A DNA stretch of 64,000 nt from an uncultured Chloroflexia bacterium. GTDB taxonomy: Bacteria > Chloroflexota > Limnocylindria > Limnocylindrales > CSP1-4. The position numbers and the translations under genes are program-made. Below are positions 2,986 through 60,259 of this stretch, in pieces. The stretch is taken from assembly GCA_963833285.1 (NCBI GenBank), contig CAWHXM010000005.1, forward strand, positions 285,324 to 349,323. The letters run 5' to 3'. The notes below the pieces were generated by a model. That model had not been told where the DNA came from. It did not search any database and saw only the letters and a program-made list of their open reading frames with translations. Position 1 is the first letter of the stretch. Every line of letters begins with the position of its first letter.

Positions 2986-4251
2986 ATGACCCGGGACCCC
3001 GGTGCCCCATCGCTCCTTCGTTCGGTCGGCCTGCTCGCCGACGGCCCGGTGGTCTGGGGGAGACCGGTCGCCGTGCAGGGTCCGGGCGTGTTCGTCATCG
3101 AGCTCGCCGCGCCGACCCCGACCGCGCATGTCGAGCTCACCCGCGTTGGGAAATGGATCGAGCGCGTCGAGACCCTTCGCCTCGATGGCGAACGGCCGAG
3201 CTCGCGCGCTTTGGCCGCGCGCCTGGCGTCGTTCTGGCTGCCATCGCAGCAGGTCCTCTATGTCGGGGCCACGGCGCACTCGATCGGCCGGCGGGTCGCG
3301 GCGATCGGCGCCACGGAGCTTGGCGATCGTCGACCCCACTCCGGCGCGCACTGGCTCAAGACGCTCCGGTCGCTCGATGGCGTCCGGGTCTGGTGGGCGC
3401 CGACCACGGCTACCGAGGAGTACGAGGACGCCCTCCTGACTTCATTCGCCGAGGGTGTGCCGCAGGCCGACCTCGAGGGACTCCCGGATCGCACGGTCGT
3501 GCTCCCATGGGCGAACCTCCGGACGGTCACCGGCGATCGCAAGGCGACCGGTCTGAGCGGGTCGCTGGTCGCCGAGCCGGTCGAGGCACCACCGCCGCCG
3601 ACCCGTGTCGTCGTCGTCCCCGACGGCGACGCCGAGGGTGCCCGCGGCGAGCCACCCGAGCCGAAGCGCCGGACGGCAACTCCGCGATCGACGCGTGGCG
3701 CCGTGGCCGCGGCCGGGGCGGGCGGGCCCGCTGCGGGCGCGGGCACGGGCAGCACGGCGACGTCGGCCGTCAGCCCGCCGCCCGGCGCGATGCCCGCACC
3801 CGAGGCGCTCACGACCGAGGGGGATGCCCGTCTGAGGGCCGAGCTCCACGAGCTCACCCACGTCCGCCGGCCGCAGATCATCGCCCGGATCCGGACGGCC
3901 AAGGAGCACGGCGACCTCAAGGAGAACGCCGAGTATCACGCGGCTCGCGAGGAGCAGTCGTTCCTCGAGGGTCGGGTCCAGGCGATCGAGGCTCGACTGC
4001 GGTCGGCCGTGATCGTCGAGGCACCCGCTGCCGGGTCGCGGGTCGGTCTCGGCTCGGTCGTGACGCTCGACGACGACGGGGAGTCGGTGGTCTACACGAT
4101 CGTCGGGGCCGACGAATCCGATCCTGTCCGCGGTCGGATCTCGTCCTCGTCGCCCGTCGGGCGGGCCCTCGTCGGGCGCGACGCGGGCGACTACGTGGTC
4201 GTGCAGACGCCTGCCGGCGAGGCCCGCTACCGGATCGTCGACATCGCATAG
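2986..4251 (+). CDS. greA: GreA transcription elongation factor domain fused to an uncharacterised 280-aa N-terminal region (start uncertain)
   Basis: The C-terminal 150 aa are a complete GreA (GDLKENAEYHAAREEQSFLEGRVQAIEARL ... SSSSPVGRALVGRDAGDYVVV). The same frame is open upstream without a stop, through a Pro/Ala linker and a globular-looking N-terminal region. Confidence 0.7.
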   Translation: MTRDPGAPSLLRSVGLLADGPVVWGRPVAVQGPGVFVIELAAPTPTAHVELTRVGKWIERVETLRLDGERPSSRALAARLASFWLPSQQVLYVGATAHSIGRRVAAIGATELGDRRPHSGAHWLKTLRSLDGVRVWWAPTTATEEYEDALLTSFAEGVPQADLEGLPDRTVVLPWANLRTVTGDRKATGLSGSLVAEPVEAPPPPTRVVVVPDGDAEGARGEPPEPKRRTATPRSTRGAVAAAGAGGPAAGAGTGSTATSAVSPPPGAMPAPEALTTEGDARLRAELHELTHVRRPQIIARIRTAKEHGDLKENAEYHAAREEQSFLEGRVQAIEARLRSAVIVEAPAAGSRVGLGSVVTLDDDGESVVYTIVGADESDPVRGRISSSSPVGRALVGRDAGDYVVVQTPAGEARYRIVDIA

Positions 4252-4279: not shown

Positions 4280-5011
4280 CTACCTCGGCGGTTCGACCAG
4301 CTTGTGCTCGACCGCGTAGAGGGCGGCCTGCGTCCGCGACGCCAGGCCGAGCTTGCCGAGGATGTTCGAGACGTAGGTCCGCGCCGTCCGCTCGGTGATG
4401 AACAGCGCGGTGCCGATCTCCTTGTTGCTCATCCCCTGGCCGAGCAGGTTGAGGACGTCCTTCTCGCGGTCGGTCAATGGCTCGACGAGACTGTCGTTGG
4501 GGGCCTTGCGGTTGCGCATCCGCTGGGCGAGCAGGCGGGCGACGGCCGGGTCGAGGTGGACCTCGCCGTGATACGCGGCGCGCACCGCCGCGGCGACCTC
4601 ATCCGCGTCGGCGTCCTTGAGGACGTAGCCGGAGGCACCGGCCTCGAGTGCCGCGGTGACCTGCTCCTCCTCGATGAACGAGGTCATCGTCACGATCTCG
4701 GTCTCCGGCCGCTCGGCCTTGATCCGGCCGATGGCGGTCACGCCGTCCATGTTCGGCATGAGCAGGTCCATCAGCACCACGTCGGGTTCGAGCCGGCGGG
4801 CCATGGCCACGCCCTCCGACCCGTCGGTCGCCTCCCCGACCACCTCGATGTCGGGCTGCAGCTCGAAGAACATGCGCAGGCCCATCCGGACGACCGAGTG
4901 GTCGTCGACGATGAGGACGCGGATGGTGGGCTGATCGGTCACGTCGGCTCCTGGGGCGAGGGCGCCCTGGTGCAGGTCTATGGACGCGCGGGACGGCGTC
5001 GAGTCTAGCAA
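4280..5011 (-). CDS. two-component response regulator, NarL/LuxR family (receiver + HTH)
   Basis: Receiver motifs (VLIVDDH, phospho-acceptor in DVVLMDLLMP, T and K sites) and a LuxR HTH (LTDREKDVLNLLGQGMSNKEIG...TYVSNILGKLG). The true start may be the GTG near 4942. Confidence 0.9.
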   Translation of the reverse strand: MLDSTPSRASIDLHQGALAPGADVTDQPTIRVLIVDDHSVVRMGLRMFFELQPDIEVVGEATDGSEGVAMARRLEPDVVLMDLLMPNMDGVTAIGRIKAERPETEIVTMTSFIEEEQVTAALEAGASGYVLKDADADEVAAAVRAAYHGEVHLDPAVARLLAQRMRNRKAPNDSLVEPLTDREKDVLNLLGQGMSNKEIGTALFITERTARTYVSNILGKLGLASRTQAALYAVEHKLVEPPR

Positions 5012-5030: not shown

Positions 5031-5456
5031 TCAAAGCACGACGAGCAGGCACGCCGCCAGGATCGCGGTGAGCAGGTCGCCTGCGCGGAACGTCTTGCGG
5101 CAGACGCAATCGGCGGCCGATGTCAGGTCGGCGATCTGCGGCATGTCCGACCCACCCATGACCACGACCCGGACACCCGGGACCAGCGCACGGAGGCGGC
5201 GGATGAACTCGAGACCGCCATCGACCTCGGGCAGGCGCGGATCCACGACGACGACGTCCGGCTCGGTCGCCCTGACGATCTCGAGCGCCGGCTCGGCTTC
5301 GCCGGCACTGCCCACGATGTAGAGGCGGTCGCCGATCCCGAGCAGGCGGGTCAGGCTCTCCCGGACCCGGTCATCGGCATCGACCACCACGACGCGGAGC
5401 GGCGAGGGCGAGCCCGGATCGGGGTGCATCGCGTCCATCCTGCCGCGCCGGCGCAC
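5031..5456 (-). CDS. single-domain response regulator (CheY-like receiver)
   Basis: VVVVDADD ... VVVVDPRLPEVDG ... VVVMGG pattern of a receiver domain; no output domain. Confidence 0.75.
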   Translation of the reverse strand: MRRRGRMDAMHPDPGSPSPLRVVVVDADDRVRESLTRLLGIGDRLYIVGSAGEAEPALEIVRATEPDVVVVDPRLPEVDGGLEFIRRLRALVPGVRVVVMGGSDMPQIADLTSAADCVCRKTFRAGDLLTAILAACLLVVL

Positions 5457-5515: not shown

Positions 5516-8500
5516 TCATCCGTCGCGGATCGATGCAGGCTCGGCGGGCGGCGGCGGGGCGCCGAGCGCGGCGATCGCCGTGTCGGGGACGACGATCTCG
5601 ACGGTCGTCCCCTCGCCGGGCACGCTGCGGCACGAGAAGCGCGCCCCGATCTTGGCGGTCCGGGCGCGCATCCCGGCCAGGCCGAGATGTCCGTCCGGGA
5701 CGCGCTCCGGGTCGAACCCCCGGCCGTCGTCGCTGATGCGCAGGCGGACGCCCTTGGCGATCCGGCCGATCTCGACACGCACCTGGCGGGCGTTGGCGTG
5801 CTTGACGACGTTGTGCAGAGCCTCCTGGGCGATCCGGTAGAGGACCTCCTCGACCTGGAGCGGGAGCCGCTCGTCGATGGTGCTCTCGACGACCACCGGG
5901 AGCCCGATCCGGCCCTGGAGCGCGGCGGTGTGCGTGCGCAGCGCGCGACTCAGACCATCCTGTTCGAGGTTGCCGGGACGGAGCTCGAAGATGAGCGCGC
6001 GCATCTCGGCCAACGCCTCGCGCTGGAGGTCGCGCAGCTGTGCCAGCTGGGCCTTCGCGGCGTCGCGGTCCCGGTCGAGCAGCATCTCCACCGACTTCGA
6101 GACGAGGGTCATCGAGAACAGCGCCTGGGTGACCGAATTGTGGAGCTCGCGGGCCAGATGCGCGCGTTCCTCACCGGCGGCGAGCTCGCCGGCCTGACGG
6201 CGGAGGTCGCGCTCGAGCCGGTCGCGCTCGCTGACATCGCGCGCCGCGCCGTGCGCCCCGATGAACCGGCCATCGGCGGTCATCCCCGTGCCGTTGATCT
6301 CGACGAGCACGTCGTGTCCGTCGGCGTGCCGGAACGGGAGACGCATCCGGTGGACCGCCGTGGGGTGGCGGGCCAGCCAGCGGAAGCGGATCGTCGCGTC
6401 GCGGCGTGCCGCAGGGGCGAAGATCTCGGCGTACGGGCGACCCATCAGCTCGGTCGGCTCGAAGCCGAGCATCGAGCGCGCCGCGTCGCTGATGAACGTC
6501 AGCGTCCCCTCGGCATCGGTCAACCAGACGAGATCGGGCGACGACGCGACGAGGTAGCGATAGCGCTCCTCTGACTCACGCAGCTCGCGTTCGAGGCGAT
6601 CGCGCTCGCTGATGTCGCGGGTCGAGCCATGGATGCCCGCGAACTGCCCGTCGGCATCGAGCATCCCGATGGCGCTGACCTCGACCGGGACGAGCCGGCC
6701 CTCCGGGCTCTTGAGCTTGATGTGCGCCACCTGTTCGGTGGACGGATCGGCCGCGAGCGCGATCCAGCGGGTCATCGCCTCCGGATGGCTGGCCTCGTCG
6801 ACGACGACGCTGAAATGCTCGCCGGTGACCTCGTCGGGCGGCCAGCCGCTCATCCGCTCCATCGACTCGGACATGAAGGTGAAGCGGCCCTCCGCGTCCG
6901 TCGAGAACACGACGTCGGGCGAGTTCTCGACGAGGAAGCGGTAGCGCTCCTGCGAGTCGCGCAGCTCGCGCTCGAGCCGCTCCTGCTGGGTGACGTCGCG
7001 GACGGTGCCCTGGACGCCGGCGAACCGACCTTCCTCCCAGACCGAGACCGAGGTGATCTCGGCGGGGAACGTCGTCCCGTCGCGGTACTTGACCATGTAG
7101 CGGAAGCGACGGACGACGTCGTGCTCGTGGCGCTGCGCCTCGAAATTCGCGAGCGCCTCGGCGAGCGACGCCTCGCCGGTCAGGTCGGCGAACGACATGC
7201 CGACGATCTGCGCCGGTGTCAACCCGAAGAGCGGTTCCGAGCCCTCCGCCACGAACAGGAAGCGTCCGTCGGCGTCGCAGCGGTAGATGACGTCCGGCGT
7301 CGTCTGGACCAGCTGGCGGAAGCGAGCCTCCGACTCCTGGAGCTCGCGCTCGAGGCGATCGCGGTCGCGCATGTCGCGGACCGAACCGTTGGCGCCGATG
7401 AACCGGCCGGCCTCGTCGAGCCGCGCCGTCGCGATGAACTCGGCGGGGATCGGCGAGCCATCCCGACCGAGGAGGTTGACCCTACCCCGGACCTCCTGCG
7501 CGCCTACGCTCATCCCGACCGACCAGTCGAAGTCAGCGACCTCCTGCGACGATCCGTGGACGAGCGCCGCGAACGGCTCGCCGATGAGCTCATCCGGGCG
7601 GAAGCCGGTGAGTCGCTCGACGGCGTCGGACACGAAGGTGAGGCGCGTGTCGGCCCCGATCGACCAGACGATGTCCGGCGCGTTCTCGACCAGGTACCGG
7701 TAGCGCTCCTCCGATTCGGTCAGGCGCGTCAGGAGCGTCGAGTTGGTGATCGCGATGGCCGCCTGGTCGGCCAGGCCCTGGAGGAGATCCAGCTCCTCCG
7801 CGGCGAACATCCGCGGCAACGCCGACGAGATCGCGAGCGTGCCGATGACCTCACCGCCAGGGGCGCGCAGCGGGGCGGCCGCCATCCCGCACAGGTTCAG
7901 GCGCTGGGCGACCGCGACGTCGTCCGGCTCGTGCGGGATCCGCGGGTCGGTGCCGTAGTCGCTCGTCCAGACGGCTTCGCCCTGGCTCGCGGCGAGACCG
8001 TTGATCCCGCCATCGAGCGGGAAGTGCATCCCCAGCAGCCACGACTGGGTCTCCGGGTCGGTCGCCCCGGCCACCACGACCGGCACGAGGTAGGTGCCGT
8101 CGTCGCTCATCCTGGTGAGGTGGGCACCGTCGGTGCCCAGCAGCCGCTGCGCCTCCTCGACGACCCGCTCGAGGATGACCTCCGGCTCGCGCAGCGCGGC
8201 GATCCGGGCGGTGATGTCGCGCAACGCGCGCTCCGTGTCGGCCCGCCTGGCGACCGCCGCCTGCGACCGCTCGAGCTCCTCGATGAGGCGGGCGTTCGTG
8301 ATCGCGATCGCCGCCTGGTCGGCAAGCCCGCCGAGGACCGCGGCGTCGATCTCGTCGAACGCGTGCGTCTCGCGGCGATAGACCTCGATCGCGCCGAGCG
8401 GGCCCTCGTCGCCGATGATCGGCGCGACGATGAGATCGCCGATCCCGGTCCGCCTGGCCAGATCGTCGGTGCGCTCGACGTGATGGAACTCGCCGGCAAG

Positions 8501-9616
8501 GTAGTCGCCCGCCGCGATGACCTTGCCCTCGGCCATCGCGCGACCGGACAGGCCCTCGCCGGTGCGCAGCCGCGTCGCCCGGACCGTGTCGCGCTGCTCC
8601 TGGCTCAGGCCCGCGTCATAGGCCGTGACCAGCACGCCCTCGACATCGTCGTACTCGTCGATGACCGCGCCGTCCGCCCGCAGCAGCCGGCGTGCCTCGT
8701 CCACGATGCGCTGGAGCAGGTCGCCCGGCTGGCGGATCGCCGTGATCCGCGCGGTGATCTCGCGCAGCGCGCGTTCCGCCTCGGCGCGACGCTCGATGAC
8801 CGCCCGCGAGCGGGCGAGCTCCTCGATCAGCCGGGCATTGCGGATGGCCACCGAGGCCTGGGTCGCCAGGGCGGTCAGCACCTCGCCGTCGGCGTCGTCG
8901 TAGGCCGCGACCTGGCGCGACACGACCGACAGCGTGCCGATCGGCCCGGCGTCGCCCGGCAGCGGGACCGCGACGACCGAGCGGATCCCGGTGGACTCGA
9001 CGAAGGCGCGGGCCGCGTCGTCGCGCACGAACCGGTCGTCGTCGAGGTAGTCGTCGGTGCGCACCGCGCGCTGCTCGGCGAACGCGGTCCCGGCCACGGC
9101 CTGCCCGGGCCTGAGGCCGCCGACCCTCGCCCAGTCGGGGACGACCGCCATCGTCTCCCCGGCCGCGTACGACCAGCGCAGCGCCTCGATCGACGGATCC
9201 CACAGGTCGATCCGGGCGCCGTCCGATTCGAGCAGGCGAGTCGTCTCGTCGACGATCTGCTGGAGCACCTCGGCGGGCTCGAGGATGGCCGACACGCGGG
9301 CGGCGATCTCGCGCAGCGTCTGCTCCGAGTCGGCGCGCCGGGCGATCTCGGTCCGTGACCGCTCGAGCTCGTCGATGAGGCGGGCATTGGCGATCGCGAC
9401 GGCGGCCTGGTCGGCCAGCGCCGAGAGGAGGCCGGCATCGGCCTCGCCGAACGCGTCCGGTCGATCGCCATAGACCGTGATCGCCCCGACGACCACGTCG
9501 CGGTGGATGAGCGGCGCGGCGATGACCGACCGGATCCCCGACTCGCGCACGAACGCGTCACGCTCCGGCGTGTGCTCGAAGCGGTCGTCATCGAGGTACG
9601 AGCCGGTCCATTCCAC
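5516..9616 (-). CDS. sensor histidine kinase, C-terminal 1,366 aa of a giant gene: end of GAF4, GAF5-7, four PAS domains, HisKA_3 and HATPase
   Basis: Repeated GAF signatures (W..DYL.D.RF...GIRS..A.PL), each followed by a signalling helix ARLIEELERSR. Four PAS repeats (RYRYLVENAPD..., RFRQLVQTTPD..., RYRFLVENSPD..., RYRYLVASSPD...). HisKA_3 (ERAHLARELHNSVTQAL) and an ATPase domain (DDGRGFD...GLAGMRAR). Confidence 0.85.
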   Translation of the reverse strand: MEWTGSYLDDDRFEHTPERDAFVRESGIRSVIAAPLIHRDVVVGAITVYGDRPDAFGEADAGLLSALADQAAVAIANARLIDELERSRTEIARRADSEQTLREIAARVSAILEPAEVLQQIVDETTRLLESDGARIDLWDPSIEALRWSYAAGETMAVVPDWARVGGLRPGQAVAGTAFAEQRAVRTDDYLDDDRFVRDDAARAFVESTGIRSVVAVPLPGDAGPIGTLSVVSRQVAAYDDADGEVLTALATQASVAIRNARLIEELARSRAVIERRAEAERALREITARITAIRQPGDLLQRIVDEARRLLRADGAVIDEYDDVEGVLVTAYDAGLSQEQRDTVRATRLRTGEGLSGRAMAEGKVIAAGDYLAGEFHHVERTDDLARRTGIGDLIVAPIIGDEGPLGAIEVYRRETHAFDEIDAAVLGGLADQAAIAITNARLIEELERSQAAVARRADTERALRDITARIAALREPEVILERVVEEAQRLLGTDGAHLTRMSDDGTYLVPVVVAGATDPETQSWLLGMHFPLDGGINGLAASQGEAVWTSDYGTDPRIPHEPDDVAVAQRLNLCGMAAAPLRAPGGEVIGTLAISSALPRMFAAEELDLLQGLADQAAIAITNSTLLTRLTESEERYRYLVENAPDIVWSIGADTRLTFVSDAVERLTGFRPDELIGEPFAALVHGSSQEVADFDWSVGMSVGAQEVRGRVNLLGRDGSPIPAEFIATARLDEAGRFIGANGSVRDMRDRDRLERELQESEARFRQLVQTTPDVIYRCDADGRFLFVAEGSEPLFGLTPAQIVGMSFADLTGEASLAEALANFEAQRHEHDVVRRFRYMVKYRDGTTFPAEITSVSVWEEGRFAGVQGTVRDVTQQERLERELRDSQERYRFLVENSPDVVFSTDAEGRFTFMSESMERMSGWPPDEVTGEHFSVVVDEASHPEAMTRWIALAADPSTEQVAHIKLKSPEGRLVPVEVSAIGMLDADGQFAGIHGSTRDISERDRLERELRESEERYRYLVASSPDLVWLTDAEGTLTFISDAARSMLGFEPTELMGRPYAEIFAPAARRDATIRFRWLARHPTAVHRMRLPFRHADGHDVLVEINGTGMTADGRFIGAHGAARDVSERDRLERDLRRQAGELAAGEERAHLARELHNSVTQALFSMTLVSKSVEMLLDRDRDAAKAQLAQLRDLQREALAEMRALIFELRPGNLEQDGLSRALRTHTAALQGRIGLPVVVESTIDERLPLQVEEVLYRIAQEALHNVVKHANARQVRVEIGRIAKGVRLRISDDGRGFDPERVPDGHLGLAGMRARTAKIGARFSCRSVPGEGTTVEIVVPDTAIAALGAPPPPAEPASIRDG

Positions 9617-11753
9617 CCGATGGGTGCGCAGCGAGCGGCCGGAAACGCCGGCGTCGGCGCGCGAGCACGGTGTCGCCCAGGAGCGAGATGTTGGACGACG
9701 CCCGGATGCCGGCCTCCCGGCTCGACCAGGCCTCGGCGGTCCCGGTCGCGCCCAGCAGGTCGATCATCGCACCGGTCGCGCCGAGGAGGCGGACCGAGGC
9801 GTCGATGACCGCCTGGAGGATCTCGTCCTGGTCGTGCGTCGCGCTGACACGGCCGGCGATCTCGCGCAGCGTCCGCTCGGCGTCGGCGGTCCGGGTGAGC
9901 TCGCCGCGGGACCGCGCCAGCTCCTCGATCAGCCGGGCGTTGGTGATCGCGATCGCGGCCTGGCTGGCGAGGGCCCCGACGAGTGCGGCGTCCGTGTCGT
10001 TGAACGCGGCTCGCTGCGTCGAATAGACCTCGATGACCCCGAGCGGGCCGGATTCGCCGGTGATCGGCGCGGCGATCATCGAGTGGAACCCGGTCCGTTC
10101 GTAGAACTCGGTCGACTCCGCCGACGGCGGGAAGAGTGACGCGAGGTCGTCGTCGGCGACGACGACGCGATCCTCGGCGACAGCGGTCCCCGTGGCGCCG
10201 ACGCCCACCGAGATCCACAGGCTGGCGCGTTCCTCCGGCGTGAACTCCTCGGACAGGCCGTCGTCGAGCGCCCAGTTCAGGTTTCCCGTCGCGGGGTCGA
10301 GCAGGTCGAGGATGACGCCGTCGGCACGGACCAGCCGACCGGCCTGCTTCACGACGTCCTTGAGGATCTCGCCCGGCTCGCGCAGGACCGTGATCCTGGC
10401 GGCGATCTCGCGCAGGCCCTGTTCGGCCTCTGCCCGTCGCCTGAGCGCGTCGCGAGAGCGATCGAGCTCGGCGATCAGGCGGGTGGTCCGGATCGTGATC
10501 GAGGCCTGGTCGGCGATCGTGGTGAGCACTGCCGCGTCGGCCTCGCCCCAGGCATCGGGCCGGCCGCTGGACACCAGCAGGGCTCCGATCGAGCCGTCCT
10601 CGTCGGTCAACGGGACGGCCATCACGGAGCGGATCCCCGACGCCTCGATGAACCGGTCGATGTCGGGCAGATGGGTGAAGCGTGGGTCGCCCAGGTAATC
10701 GCCCGTCCAGAACGGCCGCCCACCCACGACGGCCTGCCCGGCCACGCCCTGGTCGAGCATCTCGTTGGGGTCTGCCGGCAGTGGCATCTGGGGCTCGAGC
10801 GCGCCCGACGCATAGGCCCCGCGCAGGAGCCCGACGGCGGGATCGATGAGGTCGATCCGTGCGCCGTCCGCGTCCATCAGCCGGGCGGCCTCGTCGACGC
10901 TCAGCTGGAGCACGGCTGGCAGATCGCTCGCCGCGCTGATGCGCGCCCCGATCTGGCGCAGCGTGCGCTCGATGTCGGCCAGCTTGGCCAGCTCGCCGCG
11001 CGAGCCGTCGAGCGCCTCGATGAGCCGGGCGTTGCTCATCGCCGCGGCCGCGTGGTCGGCGAGGGCTCGGACCAGACCGATCTGGGCCGGGCTGAACGCC
11101 TCGGGTCGCGAGGAGAACGTGCCGAGCGCGCCGTACACCTCGTCGCCGGCCACGAGCGGGGCGACGACCATCGAGCGGATCCCGATGTCGCGAACGACCC
11201 GGTCGGTGTCCTCGGCGTGGATGAACGCGGTGTCCGCGAGGTAGTCGTTGGTCAGGACGACTGCGCGCTCGGCGACGGCACGACCGAACATCCCGATCCC
11301 GACCGGCAGGTCGATCGAGCGGACCCACGCCCGGCTCCGCCGGCTGCGGATCCCGGCATCGTGCGCGAACCGCAGGTGGCCGGTCGCCGGATCGATCACG
11401 TAAACCATCGCGCCGTCGGCGTCGAGCAGCCGCGCGGCCTCGTCGACGGCCGCGGTCAGGAGCTCGTGGACGTCGCCGGCGCCGCCATCCGGATCGCGCC
11501 CGAGCCGGCGGCCGTCGCGGCTCCCCCGGCGGCGCGTCGCGGTAGCGGGGCTCGCGGCCTGGGCCGGGTCCGGGGTCGCGGATCCGTTCGAGGCGCCGTT
11601 GGCGTCGTCGGTCGCGGCGTGTGCGGCGGCCTCGAGCGGCTCCGTCGCCGGCGGGGCGGTCGGGGCTGTGGCGGTCGTCGGGCGGCGGGCGCGCGGCGCG
11701 CGCGTCGGGCTGGTCACCGCCCGAGGATACGACGCCACCGCCAGGACAGGCAT
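9588..11753 (-). CDS. N-terminal 721 aa of the same sensor kinase (GAF1 to start of GAF4), separated from 5516..9616 by a +1 frameshift near 9656-9662
   Basis: Three and a half GAF units with the same signature motifs. The GAF4 sequence continues seamlessly in the other frame (GVSGRSLRTHRMEWTGSYLDDDRF), so both ORFs belong to one ancestral reading frame. Confidence 0.8.
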   Translation of the reverse strand: MPVLAVASYPRAVTSPTRAPRARRPTTATAPTAPPATEPLEAAAHAATDDANGASNGSATPDPAQAASPATATRRRGSRDGRRLGRDPDGGAGDVHELLTAAVDEAARLLDADGAMVYVIDPATGHLRFAHDAGIRSRRSRAWVRSIDLPVGIGMFGRAVAERAVVLTNDYLADTAFIHAEDTDRVVRDIGIRSMVVAPLVAGDEVYGALGTFSSRPEAFSPAQIGLVRALADHAAAAMSNARLIEALDGSRGELAKLADIERTLRQIGARISAASDLPAVLQLSVDEAARLMDADGARIDLIDPAVGLLRGAYASGALEPQMPLPADPNEMLDQGVAGQAVVGGRPFWTGDYLGDPRFTHLPDIDRFIEASGIRSVMAVPLTDEDGSIGALLVSSGRPDAWGEADAAVLTTIADQASITIRTTRLIAELDRSRDALRRRAEAEQGLREIAARITVLREPGEILKDVVKQAGRLVRADGVILDLLDPATGNLNWALDDGLSEEFTPEERASLWISVGVGATGTAVAEDRVVVADDDLASLFPPSAESTEFYERTGFHSMIAAPITGESGPLGVIEVYSTQRAAFNDTDAALVGALASQAAIAITNARLIEELARSRGELTRTADAERTLREIAGRVSATHDQDEILQAVIDASVRLLGATGAMIDLLGATGTAEAWSSREAGIRASSNISLLGDTVLARRRRRFRPLAAHPSGGMDRLVPR

Positions 11754-12874: not shown

Positions 12875-12903
12875 TTGACACTTCATAGCAGTATTGCTAT
12901 ATT
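12875..12903 (+). promoter_or_regulatory. sigma-70/SigA-type promoter (TTGACA-17-TATATT) with a palindromic operator ATAGCAgtatTGCTAT in the spacer
   Basis: Perfect -35 TTGACA at 12875-12880, a 17-nt spacer, -10 TATATT at 12898-12903, then ATG at 12925. A 6-bp-arm palindrome at 12885-12900 overlaps the -10. Confidence 0.7.
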
Positions 12904-12924
12904 TCGTCGCGACAACTCAACGAG

Positions 12925-13428
12925 ATGGAGCGGACTCGCATGGAAACACCCTGGCTCACTCTCTATCGCCGAGCCCCGGCGCTCAAGCGCCGGGACCGCC
13001 GCCTGGCCGTCGCGGCCGCGTTCCTCGGCTATCCGGCACTGATCGTCGGCTACGACCTGCTGGTCGCGCCGGGACGGCTGTCGACAGTGCTCTGGGCACC
13101 CATCGCCATCGTCCTCTTCTCGCTGACGCTGGTCGGTGCGGTGGCGCTGTACGGCTACGGCCAGGGCCGCATGGACCGCCGCGCCCGCCTCGACGAGCGA
13201 CAGCGCCAGATGGTCGACCAAGCCCTCGTCGTGAGCTATGGGGTCCTCGCCACCGTCGTCTCGGTGGCCCTCGGCATCCTCGCCGTGGCGGCCTCGTTCC
13301 AGACCATCGAGATCCACATGGACGCCCTCGCGCCGTGGCTCATCGCGGCCGGTCTGTACCTCCCGATGCTGCCATTCGCGGCGATGGCCTGGGTCGAACC
13401 GGACGCGCCGGTCGACGACGAGGCCTGA
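12925..13428 (+). CDS. membrane protein (DUF2975-like, 4 TM) co-transcribed with an XRE regulator
   Basis: Four hydrophobic helices; stop TGA at 13426-13428 abuts the GTG of the next gene. Confidence 0.6.
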   Translation: MERTRMETPWLTLYRRAPALKRRDRRLAVAAAFLGYPALIVGYDLLVAPGRLSTVLWAPIAIVLFSLTLVGAVALYGYGQGRMDRRARLDERQRQMVDQALVVSYGVLATVVSVALGILAVAASFQTIEIHMDALAPWLIAAGLYLPMLPFAAMAWVEPDAPVDDEA

Positions 13429-13429
13429 C

Positions 13430-13720
13430 GTGGCCGATCCCTCCCCCGCCCCGGAGCGGGAGGTCGTCTTCAACCGCATTCCGCTGCTGCGGGCCGACCG
13501 CGGGCTGTCGCGCGGCCAGCTGGCCGAGGCGCTCGGCATCCACTACCAGACGGTCGGCTACATCGAGCGCTGCGAGTACTCGCCGAGCCTTCACCTGGCG
13601 ATGCGCATCGCCCGGCTGTTCGAGCTGCCGGTCGAGGCGGTCTTCTCGCTCGACCCGTTCGGGCCACTCGGCGTCGAGGCGCTGGTGGCGCGCAAGGCAC
13701 CGGCCGGGGAACCTCGGTAG
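13430..13720 (+). CDS. XRE-family helix-turn-helix transcriptional regulator (about 96 aa)
   Basis: LSRGQLAEALGIHYQTVGYIERCEYSPSLHLAMRIARLF is a canonical XRE/Cro HTH. The GTG start is 1 nt after the upstream stop. Confidence 0.75.
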   Translation: MADPSPAPEREVVFNRIPLLRADRGLSRGQLAEALGIHYQTVGYIERCEYSPSLHLAMRIARLFELPVEAVFSLDPFGPLGVEALVARKAPAGEPR

Positions 13721-25201: not shown

Positions 25202-25256
25202 GAGGCCCCGCCAGGGTTCGGGTCAGAGCAACCTTCTGGAGTGGAGGCACACGCGG

Positions 25257-25400
25257 ATGATGCATGTCGAGTGTCCATGGTGCGCCGGGCCGGCGACCGT
25301 CGAGGCCGGCCCGGCCGGTGCGTTCGAGTGCACGGGGTGCGCCGTCCGGATCGACATCGCGCCGGAGCCCGTGAGCGAGCCGGTCGCCCGCGCAGCCTGA
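25257..25400 (+). CDS. small zinc-ribbon protein (47 aa)
   Basis: MMHVECPWCAGPATVEAGPAGAFECTGCAVRIDI has CxxC and CxxC pairs 19 aa apart. Confidence 0.4.
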   Translation: MMHVECPWCAGPATVEAGPAGAFECTGCAVRIDIAPEPVSEPVARAA

Positions 25401-25507
25401 GGGACGCACCCGTCGCGCTCCCCGTGACGCTTCGCACGGGGCGGGCGAGCGCCCCGGGTTGCCGGTCCCCGTCGCGAGCGACCCGTCTCGCCGCGTACGA
25501 TGACGCG

Positions 25508-26164
25508 GTGGATCGCCGTGCCGCCGCCGATGGGTTGATCGCGGCCGGTCGCCGTCTCGGTGCGCGGGGCCTGATCTCGGCCGGAGAGGGCAACCTGTCG
25601 GTCCGCCTCGATGCCGACCGGCTGCTGATGACCCCGACCGGGCTGCGCAAGGATGAGCTCGGCGCCGACGACCTCGTCGTTGTCTGGCTCGGCCATCCCG
25701 ACCGAGAGGCGGTTTCGCCGAGCGGGCACGGTCCATCCTCGGACCTTGCCATCCATCTCGCCGTGCATGCTGCGCGACCGGACATCGGTGCCGTCGCCCA
25801 CGCCCACCTCCCGGCGTTGATGAGCCTGACGCTGGCGGGCGAGATACCGGACCCGGCGGCGCTGCCGGAGACCGCGTTCCATCTGCCCCGACTCCCGTTC
25901 CTCGTCTTCGGGGAGATGGGCAGCCAGGAGCTCGCCGGCCGCATCGCGGCAGCCCTCTCGGATCCGCCGGAGCCGGCCGCCTCCGCCGTCCTCCTCGAAC
26001 GGCACGGCGCAGTGGCAGTCGGGCGCGATCCGGCCCACGCCGTCGATCGTCTCGAGCTCGTCGAGGTCCTGTGCCGGACGTGGCGCGACGCGCTCCTGAT
26101 TCGCGCGGCGAGAGCCGATGTGGGTATCGTGGACGCGCCCAGTTCCATAGAGTCGGAGAGATGA
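25508..26164 (+). CDS. class II aldolase/adducin family protein
   Basis: SAGEGNLSVR and HAHLPALMSL motifs; GTG start 27 aa before GNLSVR. Confidence 0.75.
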   Translation: MDRRAAADGLIAAGRRLGARGLISAGEGNLSVRLDADRLLMTPTGLRKDELGADDLVVVWLGHPDREAVSPSGHGPSSDLAIHLAVHAARPDIGAVAHAHLPALMSLTLAGEIPDPAALPETAFHLPRLPFLVFGEMGSQELAGRIAAALSDPPEPAASAVLLERHGAVAVGRDPAHAVDRLELVEVLCRTWRDALLIRAARADVGIVDAPSSIESER

Positions 26165-26832
26165 TGAACGCGAGGAAGTACCTGGCCGAGCTGCTCGGCA
26201 CGTTCCTGTTCATGATGGCCGGCTACGCGTCGGTGGCGAACTTCGGTCTCGCCCAGCCGGCGATCCCGGGGATCCTCGTCGTCCCCTTCTCGTTCGGCCT
26301 TGGCCTGTTGGCGGCGATCTACGCCTTCGGCCACGTCTCGGGTGGGCATTTCAACCCGGCGGTGACGGTGGCGATGGTCCTCGATAAGCGCACCGCACCG
26401 ATCGACGCGGTCGGCTACATCGTCGCCCAGATCATCGGCGCGATCGCCGCCGCCGCCGTCATCTACGTGACCGTGAGCCAGGCCGCGGTGACGGCCGGCA
26501 TCACCAAGCCCGGAGCCGGCATCAGCGACGTCAGCGCGCTGGTCCTCGAGACCGTGTTCACGGCGATCTTCCTGATCGTCATCCTGACCGCCTCGAAGCG
26601 CGCCGGGGACTTCGCCGGACTGGCCATCGCGCTCACGCTCGTCGCGATCCACTTCGCCATCGCGAACGTGACCGGATCGTCGGTCAACCCCGCGCGCTCG
26701 ATCGGCTCCGCCCTCGTCGGCGGTGACCTGACCGGCCTGTGGATCTACCTCGTCGGACCGACCGTCGGGGGGATCATCGGCTGGGGGATCTTCAGGGCGA
26801 TGGAGATGACCGGCGACGAGCCGGCGACCTGA
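26161..26832 (+). CDS. aquaporin / MIP-family channel
   Basis: Two NPA boxes (GHFNPAVT, SVNPARS) and six TM helices; overlaps the aldolase stop. Confidence 0.9.
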   Translation: MMNARKYLAELLGTFLFMMAGYASVANFGLAQPAIPGILVVPFSFGLGLLAAIYAFGHVSGGHFNPAVTVAMVLDKRTAPIDAVGYIVAQIIGAIAAAAVIYVTVSQAAVTAGITKPGAGISDVSALVLETVFTAIFLIVILTASKRAGDFAGLAIALTLVAIHFAIANVTGSSVNPARSIGSALVGGDLTGLWIYLVGPTVGGIIGWGIFRAMEMTGDEPAT

Positions 26833-29002: not shown

Positions 29003-30517
29003 CTAGGTAGGCCTGAGCCGCCCGGCCATGTCCGCGATCATCCGCCGGGCATCGGCCGAGTCGAAGTGCATCAGCGGATCGGTTTCGATGGCCTGTTCGA
29101 CGATCCGTCCGGCGATCCTCGTGTAGAGGACCGGATAGATCGCCCCCGAGCCGTCGGCCTCGAGTGTCGTGGCCAGCGCGTCCGGCCCGCCGGCGTCGAG
29201 CACGTGAGCCAGCGGCTGGATGCCGTCGTCGCGCAGACCGCCGGCCGGGTCGGCGGTGAGCACGTGGGCGAGATACCCACGCTGATGGAAGAGCACCGGC
29301 GATTCGGCCAGCTCGGCGGCGACGATGCCGGGCACCGCCTCCTGTGCGACGACCTGGCGTTCCGGATCGATCCCGAAATACGTCCGCGCGATGTGTCCGG
29401 CGAGCACGCGTGCGTTGTAGCGCGCGCCGTGGACCGCCCCTGAGTTCGAGGGCACGCCGTGCTTCTGGAGGCCCTTGGAACCCTGGCCTATCGTCCCGGC
29501 GAAGAAGATGCCCGGCACGCTCGCGCTCTCCCACCACGGCGTCTGGACCGGCAGGCGGCTCGCCCCGAAAGTCGTGACCCCCAGCTCGGGGAGGTCCACG
29601 AGCGGCGTCACGAAGCCGGTCGCCGAGATCGCGTCGTCGACCTCGATGGCGAGGTCCGCGCCGCCGTCGGTGCGCCGCAGGTGAACGGTCAACCGGCCGT
29701 CCGCCATCCGCTCGATCCGGTCGATCGCCGCGTCGAGCACGCTGACCCCGCCACCGAGCACGTGGTCCTCGTACGGTTGGACGTATCGGGCACGAACACC
29801 GACGAGCGTCTTGGTGTCGACCGACAGGCGAACCCGCGAGGGCGAGGCGACGACCAGCTGGCGCGCCCACGGCAGCAGCCCGGTGGCCAGCTCGAACCCG
29901 GAGTTCTGCTTGCCGATGATGAGCACGCGGTGATCGGCGTAGTCCTGGACCGGCCGGACATCGGCGTAGTGATGGGTGTACTCCATCCCGACGCCGGGCG
30001 GTGTGAACGGCTCGGCCACGCCGACCGCGGCCACGAGGACGCGGGCGTTGTACGTCCCGTCGGTCGTCTCGAGCTCGAACCGCTCGCCATCGGGAGTCGA
30101 CACCCGGCGCGTTCCCGTCCAGCGAGTGCCGTACCGGACGGCCACGCCGGCGCGGTCCGCGAACAGCGCCAGGTTGGCCTCCATCTCCGGCCGCGACGGG
30201 AAGTACGACGTCCCGTCCATGAGCGTCGGCTGGAGGGCACACGTGTCCGGCTCGTCGCCGAGCAGGCTGTTCCAGTCGTAGCGCTCGTAAGCGGGCGTGC
30301 CCCGCCTGGCCGGGGCGTGCGGCTTCGTCCACGACAGGAGCCGCTGGAAGAACGGCCAGCGCCGGAACATGCCACCCGGCGACGGGTCGGCCGAGATGAC
30401 CGCGTGACCGACGCCCAGCCGGCGCAACGAGTACGACACCTGGAGGGCGCCGGGGCCACTGCCGACGACGACGACCGGGTACTCGCCCGGCGGGAACGAG
30501 CCGCTCAGCTCCGCCAT
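29003..30517 (-). CDS. FAD/NAD(P)-binding oxidoreductase (flavin monooxygenase-like)
   Basis: Two Rossmann GxGxxG motifs (VVVVGSGPGALQ, LIIGKQNSGFE). Confidence 0.75.
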   Translation of the reverse strand: MAELSGSFPPGEYPVVVVGSGPGALQVSYSLRRLGVGHAVISADPSPGGMFRRWPFFQRLLSWTKPHAPARRGTPAYERYDWNSLLGDEPDTCALQPTLMDGTSYFPSRPEMEANLALFADRAGVAVRYGTRWTGTRRVSTPDGERFELETTDGTYNARVLVAAVGVAEPFTPPGVGMEYTHHYADVRPVQDYADHRVLIIGKQNSGFELATGLLPWARQLVVASPSRVRLSVDTKTLVGVRARYVQPYEDHVLGGGVSVLDAAIDRIERMADGRLTVHLRRTDGGADLAIEVDDAISATGFVTPLVDLPELGVTTFGASRLPVQTPWWESASVPGIFFAGTIGQGSKGLQKHGVPSNSGAVHGARYNARVLAGHIARTYFGIDPERQVVAQEAVPGIVAAELAESPVLFHQRGYLAHVLTADPAGGLRDDGIQPLAHVLDAGGPDALATTLEADGSGAIYPVLYTRIAGRIVEQAIETDPLMHFDSADARRMIADMAGRLRPT

Positions 30518-30927
30518 CGGTTCGCGGCCCGCAGCCGGCGGGCCTGCGCCTGGAGCATCCGCCACATGACCCTCGGGTGATCGACGAGGAACGGCTCGAC
30601 CCGCGGTCCGGCGAGGACGAGGCAGCGCAATTCGCGGAGGGCCACGACGTCGGCGATCGGCGACTCGCCGAGGATGATCGAAACCTCGCCGAAGAACTCG
30701 CCGCGCCCGAGCCGGGCCCGCTCCGTCCCGTCGACGACCACCGCCGCCTCACCATCGAGGATCACGTAGAAGCCCGATCCGGTCAGGCCCTGGCGAAGGA
30801 CCTTCTCACCCTCGCCGAAGACCACTTCCTCGAACAGGTGGACGATCCCTTCGAGACGGGGGTTCGGCAGGTCGGCGAACAGCGCGAACGAGGCGATGGT
30901 ATCGATCAGCTCCTCGCGTCCGGCCAT
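30505..30927 (-). CDS. standalone cyclic-nucleotide-binding domain protein (140 aa)
   Basis: cNMP-binding signature FGEGEKVLRQG ... FFGEVSII ... RELR; no HTH. Confidence 0.75.
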   Translation of the reverse strand: MAGREELIDTIASFALFADLPNPRLEGIVHLFEEVVFGEGEKVLRQGLTGSGFYVILDGEAAVVVDGTERARLGRGEFFGEVSIILGESPIADVVALRELRCLVLAGPRVEPFLVDHPRVMWRMLQAQARRLRAANRWRS

Positions 30928-31032
30928 GTCCGCATGGTGCCAGATAGCGGAGGAGAGCGGGTGCCGCTGGCGCGGTTGACGGCGCCGCGTCGCGCAGCGC
31001 AGCATGGCTGGGAAGCCACCCGGAGGTAGTGC

Positions 31033-31461
31033 ATGACCCTGACCCTCGACCGCAAGGCGGAGCTGCTGTCGGCCGCTCGGCTGTTCGATGGCGTCGACGC
31101 CGCCGGGATGGACCGGATCGCGGCCGTGGCGGTCCAGGTCGACTTCCCGGCCCATCATGTGATCGCGCGCCAGGGTGAGATCGGGACGGGGTTCTTCATC
31201 GTCGTCGACGGCGCCACCCGGGTGGTCCGCGACGGCGAGACCATCGCGACCCTCGGCCCCGGCGACTTCTTCGGCGAGCTGTCAGTCCTGGACGGCAAGC
31301 CGCGGAACGCCCAGGTCGTCGCCGTCGGGCCCACGACCTGCCTCGGGCTCGCGTCGTGGGACTTCGAGGCCGTCCTGCTCGCCGAGCCGCGCGTCGCCCT
31401 TGCGATCCTGCGCGGGCTCGCGACGCGCCTGCGCGACCTGACCGACCAATCCCATCACTGA
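31033..31461 (+). CDS. standalone cyclic-nucleotide-binding domain protein (142 aa)
   Basis: GEIGTGFFIVVDG ... GPGDFFGELSVL ... cNMP-binding motifs; GGAGG Shine-Dalgarno. Confidence 0.8.
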   Translation: MTLTLDRKAELLSAARLFDGVDAAGMDRIAAVAVQVDFPAHHVIARQGEIGTGFFIVVDGATRVVRDGETIATLGPGDFFGELSVLDGKPRNAQVVAVGPTTCLGLASWDFEAVLLAEPRVALAILRGLATRLRDLTDQSHH

Positions 31462-31483
31462 CCCGCGACCGACCTCGCCCTCG

Positions 31484-34258
31484 ATGACCGAGTCGCAGCC
31501 GGCGCCGGGCGGCACCGTCACCTTCCTCTTCACCGACATCGAAGGCTCGACGCAGCTGGAGCAGCGTCTCGGCACGGAGCGCTACGCCGAGGTCCTCGAA
31601 CGCCACCGGGCGCTGCTGCGCGAGGCGTGGGCGGCCAACGCCGGCGTCGAACAGGGCACCGAAGGCGATTCGTTCTTCGTCACCTTCGCGCGCGCGACCT
31701 CGGCGCTGGCCGCGGCGATCGCCGGGCAACGCGCGTTGCGCGCCGCGGCCTGGCCGGACGGTGTCGATGTCCGGGTCCGGATGGGGCTCCACACCGGCGA
31801 ATCGGAGCGCATCGGCGCCGCCGGCGGAGGCGGCGGCATGGTCGGCATCGACATCAACCAGGCAGCGCGCATCGCGGCGGTCGCCCACGGCGGCCAGATC
31901 CTGATGTCCGAGTCCACCCGTGGGCTCCTGACCACCCACCTGCCCGGCGAAGTCAGCCTGCGCGACCTTGGCGCGTTCCGCCTCAAGGACCTCCTGGCGC
32001 CGGTCCATCTCGTCCAGGTCATCGTCGACGGCCTGCCGAGCGAGTTCCCGGCCCCACGGACGCCCGACGCCCACCCCAACAACCTCCCGACCCAGCTGAC
32101 GACGTTCGTCGGTCGCGACGCGGAGCTGGCCGAGGCGGCGGCGCTGCTCGGCACGACTCGACTCCTGACCCTGACCGGTCCGGGCGGCACCGGGAAGACG
32201 CGGCTGTCGCTGCAGCTCGCCGCCCGCGTGTCGGACGACTTCCGGGACGGCGTCTTCTTCGTCCCGCTCGAGCCCATCCGCGACCCGATGCTGGTCGCGC
32301 CGAGGATCGCCGGCACGGTCGGCGTCACCGAGGGCGGCGCCCGGCCGATCGCCGACTCGCTCGCGGACTGGCTCCGCGACAGGACGACGCTGCTCGTGCT
32401 CGACAACTTCGAGCAGGTCGTCGCGGCTGCGCCGATGGTCGCCGACCTGCTCCGTGCCGCACCGGCGATCAAGATGATCGTCACCAGCCGCGCTGCGCTC
32501 CACGTCTCGGGTGAGCAGGAGTACCCGGTCCCGGGGCTACCCATCCCGCCCGATCCCAGCCATCTCAGCGGGCTCGAGCGGCTGGCCATGCCCGGTGGGA
32601 CGCGGGCGATCGACCCGGCCACGCTCGAGCAATACGCCGCCGTCCGCCTGTTCATCGAGCGCGCGGTGGCGGTCAAGCCCGGTTTCATGGTCACCAACGA
32701 GAACGCGCCGGCGGTCGCTGGCATCTGCGCCCGGCTCCAGGGCATGCCGCTCGCCATCGAGCTGGCGGCGGCGCGGATCAAGTTGCTGTCACCCGAGGCC
32801 ATCCTCGGCCGGCTCGAACACCAGCTCGACCTCCTCGCGGCGGGCGCGCGCGACTTGCCGCCCCGCCAGCAGACGTTGCGCGCCGCGATCGCCTGGAGCT
32901 ACGACATCCTCGACGACGGGGCGAAGCGGCTGCTCGATCGCCTGTCGGTCTTCGCCAGCGGGTTCGACCTCGCCTCGGCCGATGCGATCAGCGGCCCGTC
33001 ATCGGAGATCGGCGGCGACATCGTCGATGGCGTGATGGCCCTCCTCGACCAGAGCCTGGTCAAGCCGGAGGAGACGGCCCTGGGCGAGTCGCGTTTCCGG
33101 CTCCTCGACACCATCCGCGAATACGCCGCCGAGCACCTCGAGGTGCGTGGCGAGACCGCCCTCGTCCAGGGGCGCCATCGAGACTGGTACGTGGCCCTCG
33201 CGACGCAGGCCGCGGCCGAGCTGTCGGGCGCCGACCAGCGGCGCTGGCTCGACCGCCTCGAGCTCGAGCACGACGACATCCGGGCGGTCCTCGACCGGGC
33301 GGTCGCGGCCCAGGACCCGCCGGTGGCGATCGGCCTGGCATTCTCGATGTGGCGCTTCTGGCAGAAGCACGGCCATCTCGCCGAGGCCCGGATGCGTCTC
33401 GATGCCATGGCCGCCGCACGGTGGTCGCACGACGACCCCCGCCTCCGCGCGAAGCTGATGGAGGCCCTCGGCGGCACCTGCTGGTGGCAGGGCCAGCTCG
33501 AACCCATGGGCCGCTGCTACGACGAGGCGCTCGAGCTGTGGCTCGCCATCGGCGACGACGCCGAGATCGCAAACGCCTACTACAACGCGTCCTTCAAGTA
33601 CTCGGTCGCCGCGGACGGCCTGCTCTCCCAGGGCGATCTCTACGCCGACCCGGATGGTCTCGGGCTCACCTACCTCGAGAACGCGCGCGACACGTACCAC
33701 CGGATCGGCGACCGGCGTGGCGAGGCGAACGCGCTGTGGGGGCTCGGCAACTACCGCTATTTCCGCATGCACGAGGGGTTCGGCATCGAGGAGAACCGGC
33801 AGTCGCTCGAGATCTTCCGCGAGGTCGGCGACCGGACGATGGAGGCGTGGGCCCTCCACATGCTCGGGACGGGTCTCCTCCGCGCCGGCGATCCGGTCGA
33901 GGCCAAGGTCCACATCGCGCACGCCGTCCGGCACTTCTACGCCGCCGGCGATGCCGCGGGCCTGACGCTGACCCTGGACGACCTGTCGGCGGTCGCCGTG
34001 GCGGAGGGCGACCTCCCTCGTGCCGCCCGGCTGCGCGGCGCGGCGCGCAACCTCACCACGGAGACCGGGGCCGGCCTGGCGGGGTTCGTCGAGGACTCGT
34101 TCGAGGCGGGCGTCCGGCCTGGTGTCCGCTCCCACATGTCCGAGGCGGACCTCGTGCGCTATGGGGACGAGGGCGCGGCCATGACGCTCGACGAGGCCGT
34201 CGCGTTTGCCCTCGAGGGTGTCGCCGACCACGTCGCGGACGACGGGGACGTGGCGTAG
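31484..34258 (+). CDS. class III adenylate/guanylate cyclase fused to NB-ARC/AAA ATPase and TPR repeats
   Basis: Cyclase motifs FLFTDIEGST and RVRMGLHTGE; Walker A LTGPGGTGKTRL; C-terminal TPR-like helical repeats. Confidence 0.85.
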   Translation: MTESQPAPGGTVTFLFTDIEGSTQLEQRLGTERYAEVLERHRALLREAWAANAGVEQGTEGDSFFVTFARATSALAAAIAGQRALRAAAWPDGVDVRVRMGLHTGESERIGAAGGGGGMVGIDINQAARIAAVAHGGQILMSESTRGLLTTHLPGEVSLRDLGAFRLKDLLAPVHLVQVIVDGLPSEFPAPRTPDAHPNNLPTQLTTFVGRDAELAEAAALLGTTRLLTLTGPGGTGKTRLSLQLAARVSDDFRDGVFFVPLEPIRDPMLVAPRIAGTVGVTEGGARPIADSLADWLRDRTTLLVLDNFEQVVAAAPMVADLLRAAPAIKMIVTSRAALHVSGEQEYPVPGLPIPPDPSHLSGLERLAMPGGTRAIDPATLEQYAAVRLFIERAVAVKPGFMVTNENAPAVAGICARLQGMPLAIELAAARIKLLSPEAILGRLEHQLDLLAAGARDLPPRQQTLRAAIAWSYDILDDGAKRLLDRLSVFASGFDLASADAISGPSSEIGGDIVDGVMALLDQSLVKPEETALGESRFRLLDTIREYAAEHLEVRGETALVQGRHRDWYVALATQAAAELSGADQRRWLDRLELEHDDIRAVLDRAVAAQDPPVAIGLAFSMWRFWQKHGHLAEARMRLDAMAAARWSHDDPRLRAKLMEALGGTCWWQGQLEPMGRCYDEALELWLAIGDDAEIANAYYNASFKYSVAADGLLSQGDLYADPDGLGLTYLENARDTYHRIGDRRGEANALWGLGNYRYFRMHEGFGIEENRQSLEIFREVGDRTMEAWALHMLGTGLLRAGDPVEAKVHIAHAVRHFYAAGDAAGLTLTLDDLSAVAVAEGDLPRAARLRGAARNLTTETGAGLAGFVEDSFEAGVRPGVRSHMSEADLVRYGDEGAAMTLDEAVAFALEGVADHVADDGDVA

Positions 34259-34259
34259 C

Positions 34260-34373
34260 ATGCTGGGCGTGACCAGGGAATCGATGGACGTGGCGATCGC
34301 CCGGACGGACGAACGGAAGTGCAAGCTGATCCGTCGCTGCGGCTGCTTCCTGTCGTGCTCGGACTACTACTGA
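34260..34373 (+). CDS. unannotated 37-aa Cys-rich small ORF (MLGVTRESMDVAIARTDERKCKLIRRCGCFLSCSDYY)
   Basis: ATG overlaps the cyclase stop (TAGCATG); there are four Cys in the last 17 residues. It fills an otherwise unexplained 140-nt gap. Confidence 0.3.
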   Translation: MLGVTRESMDVAIARTDERKCKLIRRCGCFLSCSDYY

Positions 34374-34398
34374 CGGCCACCGGCCAGCGGGACACACC

Positions 34399-34824: not shown

Positions 34825-34878
34825 CCGCTCGGCCCGGTCGGGGGTCGGACTGGTCCGACTCGGCTAGACTGGCGTCCG

Positions 34879-60171: not shown

Positions 60172-60259
60172 GTCAGGGATAGAGGATGGCGGTCCGGGAC
60201 CGTCGCGTCCATCCCCTTCGGTGGTACTCCGTGGGCTCCCGGCGGGCGGTACTTTCGTA

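Follow-up and report, generated by a model that had tools for sequence, protein, structure and literature searches.

A seven-GAF, four-PAS sensor kinase gene of a Limnocylindria bacterium divided by a single extra base, probably an assembly error

The tandem-GAF HisKA_3 kinases DosS/DevS and DosT of Mycobacterium tuberculosis, which signal to the NarL-family regulator DosR, are by overall logic (soluble GAF inputs, a HisKA_3/HATPase core and a LuxR/NarL-type regulator) the closest characterised systems to the gene described here. This gene occupies the minus strand at positions 5516-11753 of a 64,000-nucleotide (nt) stretch of DNA (hereafter the window; 71.6% G+C) from contig CAWHXM010000005.1 of an uncultured Chloroflexia bacterium, and it encodes a sensor kinase in which seven GAF and four PAS domains precede the kinase core. 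In the deposited sequence the gene is split between two open reading frames (ORFs) that lie in different frames. Our analysis confirmed that the region is one sensor kinase gene; as to the split, we consider it likely that an intact DesK/NarX-class kinase gene has been interrupted by a residual consensus indel error of a long-read metagenome assembly, and that the interruption is not a biological feature.

One kinase gene in two reading frames

The upstream ORF (9588..11753) and the downstream ORF (5516..9616) overlap by 29 nt on the minus strand, in different frames, and an exact sequence look-up showed that the source record, a 792,833-bp NCBI/ENA contig, annotates both as separate genes. 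Three-frame translation of the minus strand from 9480 to 9900 revealed that the frame of the downstream ORF is open beyond its called start, as far as 9763, and that it encodes there ...ADAGVSGRSLRTHRVEWTGSYLDDDRF, a stretch which is the continuation of the GAF unit started in the upstream ORF (...LLGDTVLA). In the same translation the upstream frame reads ...AGIRASSNISLLGDTVLARRRRRFRPLAAHPSGGMDRLVPR followed by a stop codon, the out-of-frame tail of this ORF being RRRRRFRPLAAHPSGGMDRLVPR, and the +1 frame reads ...ADAGVSGRSLRTHRVEWTGSYLDDDRFEHTPERDAFVRESGIRSVIAAPL... Removal of any one base within ~9639-9674 results in a single fused ORF of 2078 amino acids (aa), referred to below as the repaired protein.

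The repaired protein was compared with a collection of 5.8 billion proteins, from which the best 120 homologues were listed. Full-length homologues encoded by a single ORF, about 2000-2200 aa long and with 71-78% identity, occur commonly in Limnocylindria (Chloroflexota), for example P0004 (2101 aa, 78% identity, 98% coverage), P0005 (2060 aa, 77% identity), P0006 (2065 aa, 75% identity, 100% coverage) and P0008 (2089 aa, 73% identity, 100% coverage). Where homologues are named, they appear as “GAF domain-containing protein” from metagenome-assembled genomes (MAGs) of Chloroflexota or Candidatus Limnocylindrales. The best match in GTDB is 77% identical, and the closest GTDB genomes are the MFD*.bin MAGs. 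A MAFFT alignment with 13 homologues has no gap at the junction between the two ORFs: the sequence is LLGDTVLA-x-DAGVSGRSLRT in the window and LL..V.L(A/S/D)-x-DAGVSGRALRT in the homologues, so that exactly one residue separates “LA” and “DAGVSG”. That the split GAF unit aligns without a gap to 13 full-length homologues excludes a match by chance.

Pfam analysis of the repaired protein identified seven GAF/GAF_2 stretches, which together score 398.6 bits, and four PAS stretches, which together score 185.7 bits, all above the Pfam thresholds, followed by HisKA_3 (PF07730, residues 1862-1928; 54.4 bits against a cut-off of 24) and HATPase_c (PF02518, residues 1968-2057; 53.3 bits against a cut-off of 26.4). 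The kinase core (residues about 1842-2056) matches the structures of DesK and VraS with E-values of 3e-16 to 5e-13. The protein falls into the HisKA_3 class, having a phospho-acceptor His domain, a HATPase_c domain with N, G1 and G2 boxes, and a NarL/LuxR-family regulator encoded nearby. Since no transmembrane segment was found in the kinase (the maximum Kyte-Doolittle mean over 19 residues is 1.53), we take it to be a cytoplasmic sensor. Each GAF module is preceded by a conserved helical linker, ARLIEELxRSRxxxxRRAxxERxLREIxARI, and pairwise identity among the seven modules is 28-49%. As the whole protein is 71-78% identical to, and collinear with, its full-length orthologues, the duplications that gave rise to the modules must be old; this conservation suggests that the whole array is kept under selection, which would fit the channelling of several distinct inputs into one kinase. 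Conservation is poor in the N-terminal ~90 aa and at the true start codon of the kinase; in its low-complexity Pro/Ala/Thr-rich N-terminal region there is also a 138-nt stretch (~11521-11658, minus strand) that is private to the window when compared with the three closest loci, which we call L080, L081 and L082.

When the seven modules were aligned, the shift fell about halfway through GAF module 4 (residues 606-789), at residue ~699 and just ahead of the G-x-G-x-x-G motif common to all modules; the break therefore falls within a domain and not at a module boundary. This bears on whether the deposited arrangement could be a functional split, with a free 721-aa protein of 3.5 GAF modules and a shorter kinase (three GAF, four PAS and the core) restarted at the GTG at 9616. 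Such a GTG does exist in the downstream frame, 40 nt past the shift, and since some natural homologues, about 1430-1600 aa long, have fewer GAF modules, a fewer-GAF kinase is viable in principle. Against this, the break bisects GAF4 and leaves both products with half a domain, no purine run resembling a Shine-Dalgarno sequence precedes the GTG (the sequence is CGCACCCATCGG directly before it), and no relative that we examined has two genes bounded at this position. We regard a functional split as very improbable.

Taken together, these results sustain most of what an earlier note, made from the sequence of the window, had claimed about the gene. It had described the two ORFs as consecutive parts of one protein of about 2,080 aa, with GAF4 continuing gap-free in the other frame and with seven GAF and four PAS domains ahead of HisKA_3/HATPase; single-ORF homologues span the repaired protein, the DNA of the orthologues is collinear, the operon is conserved, and length, junction and Pfam content all agree. 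A search for full-length homologues, which it had proposed as a check, returned many single-ORF proteins that span the kinase end to end, and relatives carrying two separate genes split here, which it had named as evidence to the contrary, were not encountered. What did not hold was its view that the domain count is unusual for one kinase: the best 120 homologues range from 1433 to 2522 aa and vary in GAF number, and about ten of them have seven GAF-type modules as judged from counts of the linker motif. A count of seven GAF plus four PAS domains is thus high in absolute terms and, going by these homologues, typical for the Limnocylindria lineage.

The number of PAS domains also varies, even among very close relatives. 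L082 lacks 378 nt, equal to one PAS unit (alignment column 5540), and in the homologues P0247 and P0245 the start of PAS1 is joined directly to PAS2; these differences reflect either real recombination between repeats or collapse of repeats in long-read assemblies.

Origin of the extra base

Alignment of the DNA with ten orthologous loci revealed exactly one extra base in the window, where the orthologues read CTCGC-CACCGAT, CTCGC-TCCCGAC and similar. In the alignment with the three closest loci (90% amino acid and 86% nucleotide identity) the gap falls at window position 9660, with CTCGCGCGCCGAC in the window and CTTGC-CGTCGAC in the relatives. Once this G is removed, the codons become CTC GCC GCC GAC (L A A D), and the relatives have LAVD, LAPD or LATD at this point, the closest of them LAVD. 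Within the 90%-identity cluster of the 1366-aa downstream ORF, P0243 (1948 aa), P0248 (1785 aa) and P0244 continue uninterrupted across the site of the shift, with the sequence ...SLAVDAGVSGRSLRTQRVEWTGSY... The earlier note had put the frame switch in the GC run at 9656-9662 and read it as a +1 insertion, and both alignments bear this out with a single extra G at ~9660. A scan of JGI metagenome contigs for the exact patterns around the shift, with a variable gap of 0-3 nt between them, gave 0 matches and thus yielded no contig of the same species for comparison.

The location of the base within a short alternating GC run, with the zero frame ending 23 codons later, raises the question of programmed +1 ribosomal frameshifting, or of slipped-strand phase variation at the GCGCGC tract, by which the full-length kinase would be restored or switched. 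Programmed sites are conserved among homologues, but here the 13 homologous proteins, the ten loci and the closest relatives are all in frame; moreover, the site has no stop-codon-adjacent slippery motif, and an Rfam search of the whole window gave no match. As for phase variation, a (GC)3 run is too short and would change by 2 nt, not by 1. Of all the explanations considered, we hold this one to be the least probable. Three causes had been offered in the earlier note, namely a sequencing or assembly indel, a recent pseudogenisation and a slippage-prone tract; the last is disfavoured, the change, which no relative shares, being a gain of 1 nt in a dinucleotide run, and the first is favoured.

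The case for a residual error in the consensus is carried by the sister assemblies. The 90%-identity cluster has six other members, of 1948, 1785, 1052, 737, 593 and 480 aa, on contigs of 164-733 kb, and several of them start or end in out-of-frame junk (for example the N-terminus MPRVPGSTSSIRPAGCCAGAYASG... and the C-terminus ...STRASAPSSPSRCPARPARS). The loci L080-L082 come from the ENA assemblies ERZ25039490, ERZ25039492 and ERZ25039585, in which contigs carry Flye-style names (contig_N). Their lesions are private indels of 1-2 nt, mostly single-base insertions: L080 has one private extra G at alignment column 781, L081 has one at column 1294, and L082 has five small private indels. L080 and L081 are 98.6% identical, yet the positions of their lesions differ. 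A similar picture emerged from GTDB, where the kinase orthologue is frameshifted in six of ten loci from MFD MAGs, each time elsewhere; both short-read (k141) loci have it intact. Judged by the expected protein sequence, the contexts of the MFD frame breaks resemble single-base insertions. Five of the MFD loci (L004, L005, L007, L008 and L012) furthermore carry several frameshifts in the flanking genes for APH, PALP, GreA, the response regulator with a GerE domain, the ABC permease and the DEAD helicase. The Microflora Danica (MFD) long-read catalogue, to which the assemblies of the nearest relatives belong, is Nanopore-only (pipeline in PMC12313526). Since sister assemblies carry private single-base insertions that split long ORFs, the type of data behind the nearest relatives demonstrably yields such lesions. 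The likeness between the window and the split genes of the Nanopore-only MFD loci lies in a private single-base insertion that breaks a conserved ORF, with the sister loci broken at other, random positions. Our source contig is probably also a Nanopore-only assembly, to judge from its size of 792,833 bp and from the data type of its relatives.

More generally, the public long-read Limnocylindria assemblies (the five MFD loci named above and L080-L082) show up to ~10 frame breaks in ~18 kb, and the protein calls from these assemblies in public databases are fragmented and have out-of-frame N- or C-termini.

Several observations weigh against a residual error. The insertion does not stand in a homopolymer, the classic site of Nanopore errors. 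We searched the window for further frameshifts by means of a plot of third-position G+C (GC3) by frame and of overlapping same-strand ORF pairs, followed by Pfam and NCBIfam analysis. All of the 13 flanking genes are intact in a single frame, and no split domain was found among ~45 ORF translations scanned in the window. With the window otherwise clean, the indel rate would be ~1 per 64 kb or lower, much below the lesion density of most sister loci (several per 20 kb). A rate of ~1 per 64 kb is of the same order as the background density of genuine frameshifted genes in free-living bacteria, and for this reason a real mutation retains an appreciable probability.

In such a case the extra G would be a genuine and very recent frameshift, fixed or dominant in the population, and the gene would be a fresh pseudogene or at best encode a 3.5-GAF fragment without an output domain. 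In addition to the clean surroundings, which indicate that the assembly is not generally error-ridden, this explanation can point to the presence of the base in the deposited sequence and the calling of both halves as separate genes in the source record, to the large mutational target that a 6.2-kb gene offers, and to the absence of a homopolymer at the site. On the other side, the gene carries no second stop or frameshift besides the one shift, and the ratio of nonsynonymous to synonymous substitution rates (dN/dS, Nei-Gojobori method, against L080) is 0.149 upstream and still 0.120 downstream of the shift, which means that inactivation would have to be extremely recent; a decaying pseudogene would be expected to show further lesions or relaxed selection, and neither is seen. 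Both gene and operon are conserved and syntenic across the lineage, and the base is absent from the three closest relatives and from ten other orthologous loci. Finally, comparable lesions are scattered at random over the sister long-read assemblies and their flanks, including the two 98.6%-identical assemblies with different private insertions. We therefore consider a genuine frameshift unlikely, though far from negligible; on this reading, a sensor kept by every Limnocylindria relative examined may only recently have been inactivated in the population. All explanations other than an indel error and a genuine frameshift have, even when combined, only a very slight probability.

The finding is accordingly real in the sequence and biologically ordinary. 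For annotation, it means that ORFs 9588..11753 and 5516..9616 should be combined into a single gene annotated as frameshifted, and should be treated neither as two genes nor as a biological pseudogene. It also illustrates that private single-base indels often disrupt very long conserved genes in MAGs built from long reads only, as seen in six of ten GTDB MFD loci and in all three of the closest assemblies, with the positions all different. If the split were real and expressed, it would constitute a natural experiment in the trimming of a modular input array.

The operon and the remainder of the window

The features of the kinase gene and of the two genes that follow it are collected in Table 1. 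The order kinase, receiver, receiver plus GerE is conserved in L001 (the short-read contig that carries P0004), in L080, L081 and L082 and in the GTDB MFD loci. These loci also share their flanks with the window: one side carries genes for a 141-aa protein, a cupredoxin, an ABC transporter, PALP, cupin and APH, and the opposite side carries GreA-like, beta-lactamase-like and DEAD helicase genes.

Table 1 Positions of the kinase gene, its domains and the associated regulators in the window
Feature	Position	Strand	Description
Upstream ORF	9588..11753	-	721 aa, ATG start; low-complexity N-terminus, GAF1-3, first half of GAF4, then ~23 out-of-frame codons (9588-9659) to a TGA stop
Downstream part of the kinase gene	5516..9659	-	+1 frame; second half of GAF4, GAF5-7, PAS1-4, kinase core
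Downstream ORF as called	5516..9616	-	1366 aa, GTG start at 9616
Single extra base	9656..9662	-	G in CTCGC[G]CGCCGAC, ~9660; private to this assembly
Seven-GAF array	7748..11474	-	Period ~182 aa; modules joined by conserved helical linkers
GAF module 4 with preceding linker helix	9386..9938	-	Repaired residues 606-789; module cut by the shift, immediately ahead of the conserved motif D-x-G-V/I-x-G
Four PAS domains	6218..7720	-	Pfam
HisKA_3 dimerisation and phospho-acceptor domain	5969..6169	-	H-box ELHN, His at repaired residue 1871
HATPase_c catalytic domain	5582..5851	-	N box NVVKHA, G1 box DDGRG and G2 box GLAGMRAR, all intact
Receiver-only response regulator	5031..5456	-	Acidic residues and candidate acceptor Asp in VVVVDPRLP
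NarL/LuxR-family response regulator (Response_reg and GerE)	4280..5011	-	Directly after the receiver-only gene

The second regulator (4280..5011) has an acidic pair DD, an acceptor Asp in VVLMDLLMP and the conserved T and K residues. Among NCBIfam models it most resembles NarL, with an E-value of 7.8e-56 that is nevertheless below the equivalog cut-off. Over window positions 4283-4942 its identity with the L001 orthologue is 94%, and because the identity covers this range its true start probably lies near 4942. The layout is that of a two-component system that has two candidate receivers. The earlier note had placed receiver-only and LuxR-type regulators downstream of the kinase, which Pfam and NCBIfam support, and had proposed a multi-input phosphorelay, for which the kinase itself provides no support: Pfam found neither an Hpt nor a Response_reg domain in it, the only receivers being the two separate ones downstream.

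The cupredoxin and ABC transporter genes of the window are separated by a 166/167-aa ORF with no Pfam match (12925-13428, plus strand) and a small HTH_3 (XRE-type) ORF (~13440-13720, plus strand). The pair is also present in L080; L081 has the 166-aa ORF with no HTH gene called, and both are absent from the otherwise syntenic L001, a pattern that suggests a small insertion specific to the lineage. Inside the GreA-like coding region (2986-4245, plus strand), ARAGORN calls a tRNA-Gln(ttg) at 3179-3251 (plus strand), which is probably a false positive, as Rfam gave no tRNA match at the gathering threshold.

The frameshift search returned other candidates, among them 12889-13720, 25241-26832, 29003-31158, 31030-34258 and 34330-35742, all of which were rejected, the individual ORFs having complete domains by Pfam and NCBIfam. 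At 12889-13720, the 166-aa ORF and the HTH gene are called as two genes in the sister loci. The region 29003-34258 is rich in cyclic-nucleotide signalling: an ORF with a cyclic nucleotide monophosphate (cNMP)-binding domain (30505-31158, minus strand) lies upstream of a 504-aa flavoprotein (29003-30565, minus strand), and diverging from this pair are a second cNMP-binding ORF (31030-31461, plus strand) and a protein combining adenylate/guanylate cyclase, STAND ATPase and TPR domains (31484-34258, plus strand). The first cNMP-binding ORF and the flavoprotein, the most suspicious of the pairs, are not a split gene, given that homologues of 504 aa occur as proteins on their own, including one with 100% identity. 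Further along, a gene of the AHSA1/SRPBCC family (34330-34824, plus strand) and thyX (Thy1 domain; 34825-35742, plus strand) share a frame and are separated by one stop codon; an in-frame nonsense mutation was rejected here as well, both domains being complete and thyX having its own ATG at 34879, which makes them two genes. Finally, two diguanylate cyclase genes are adjacent on the minus strand at 58813-60324 and 60260-62836, one with a single GAF domain and GGDEF, the other with three GAF domains and GGDEF; they form a further multi-GAF signalling pair in the window.

Proposed signalling and comparison with known kinases

By analogy with other members of its class, we infer how the kinase would signal. 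This soluble cytoplasmic DesK/NarX-class (HisKA_3) kinase of ~2078 aa is encoded by the first gene of a conserved operon, whose other products are a single-domain receiver and a transcription factor of the NarL/LuxR type. Ligand or redox signals perceived at the GAF and PAS modules would be passed through the coiled-coil linkers to the helix of the dimerisation and phosphotransfer (DHp) domain, upon which the His of the ELHN motif would be autophosphorylated. The phosphoryl group would then be transferred to the Asp of the adjacent NarL-type regulator and transcription would be altered, and the receiver-only protein may serve as a second acceptor, a competing acceptor or a sink.

The nearest relatives of the kinase are the proteins named “GAF domain-containing protein” or “PAS domain S-box-containing protein” in Limnocylindria MAGs, which are direct orthologues with 71-78% identity over 97-100% of the length. 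They share with it the Pfam domain families, a similar length, the operon and the flanking synteny, and the window kinase differs from them only by the private extra G, the low-complexity N-terminus and the number of modules, which varies between lineages. A literature search for characterised Limnocylindria multi-GAF kinases returned nothing specific. The family is one in which a uniformly built array of seven anciently diverged GAF and four PAS domains stands ahead of a DesK-class core. Its members are widespread in soil Limnocylindria and have no experimental characterisation, and each component is of a known kind.

Among described kinases, DesK of Bacillus subtilis and VraS have the same HisKA_3 plus HATPase_c core and a partner regulator of the NarL/LuxR family. 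They are membrane sensors with short inputs, in contrast to the window kinase, which has no transmembrane segment and carries ~1750 aa of cytoplasmic GAF/PAS input. DosS and DosT each have two GAF domains, the first of which binds haem, and no PAS domain, as compared with the seven GAF and four PAS domains of the window kinase.

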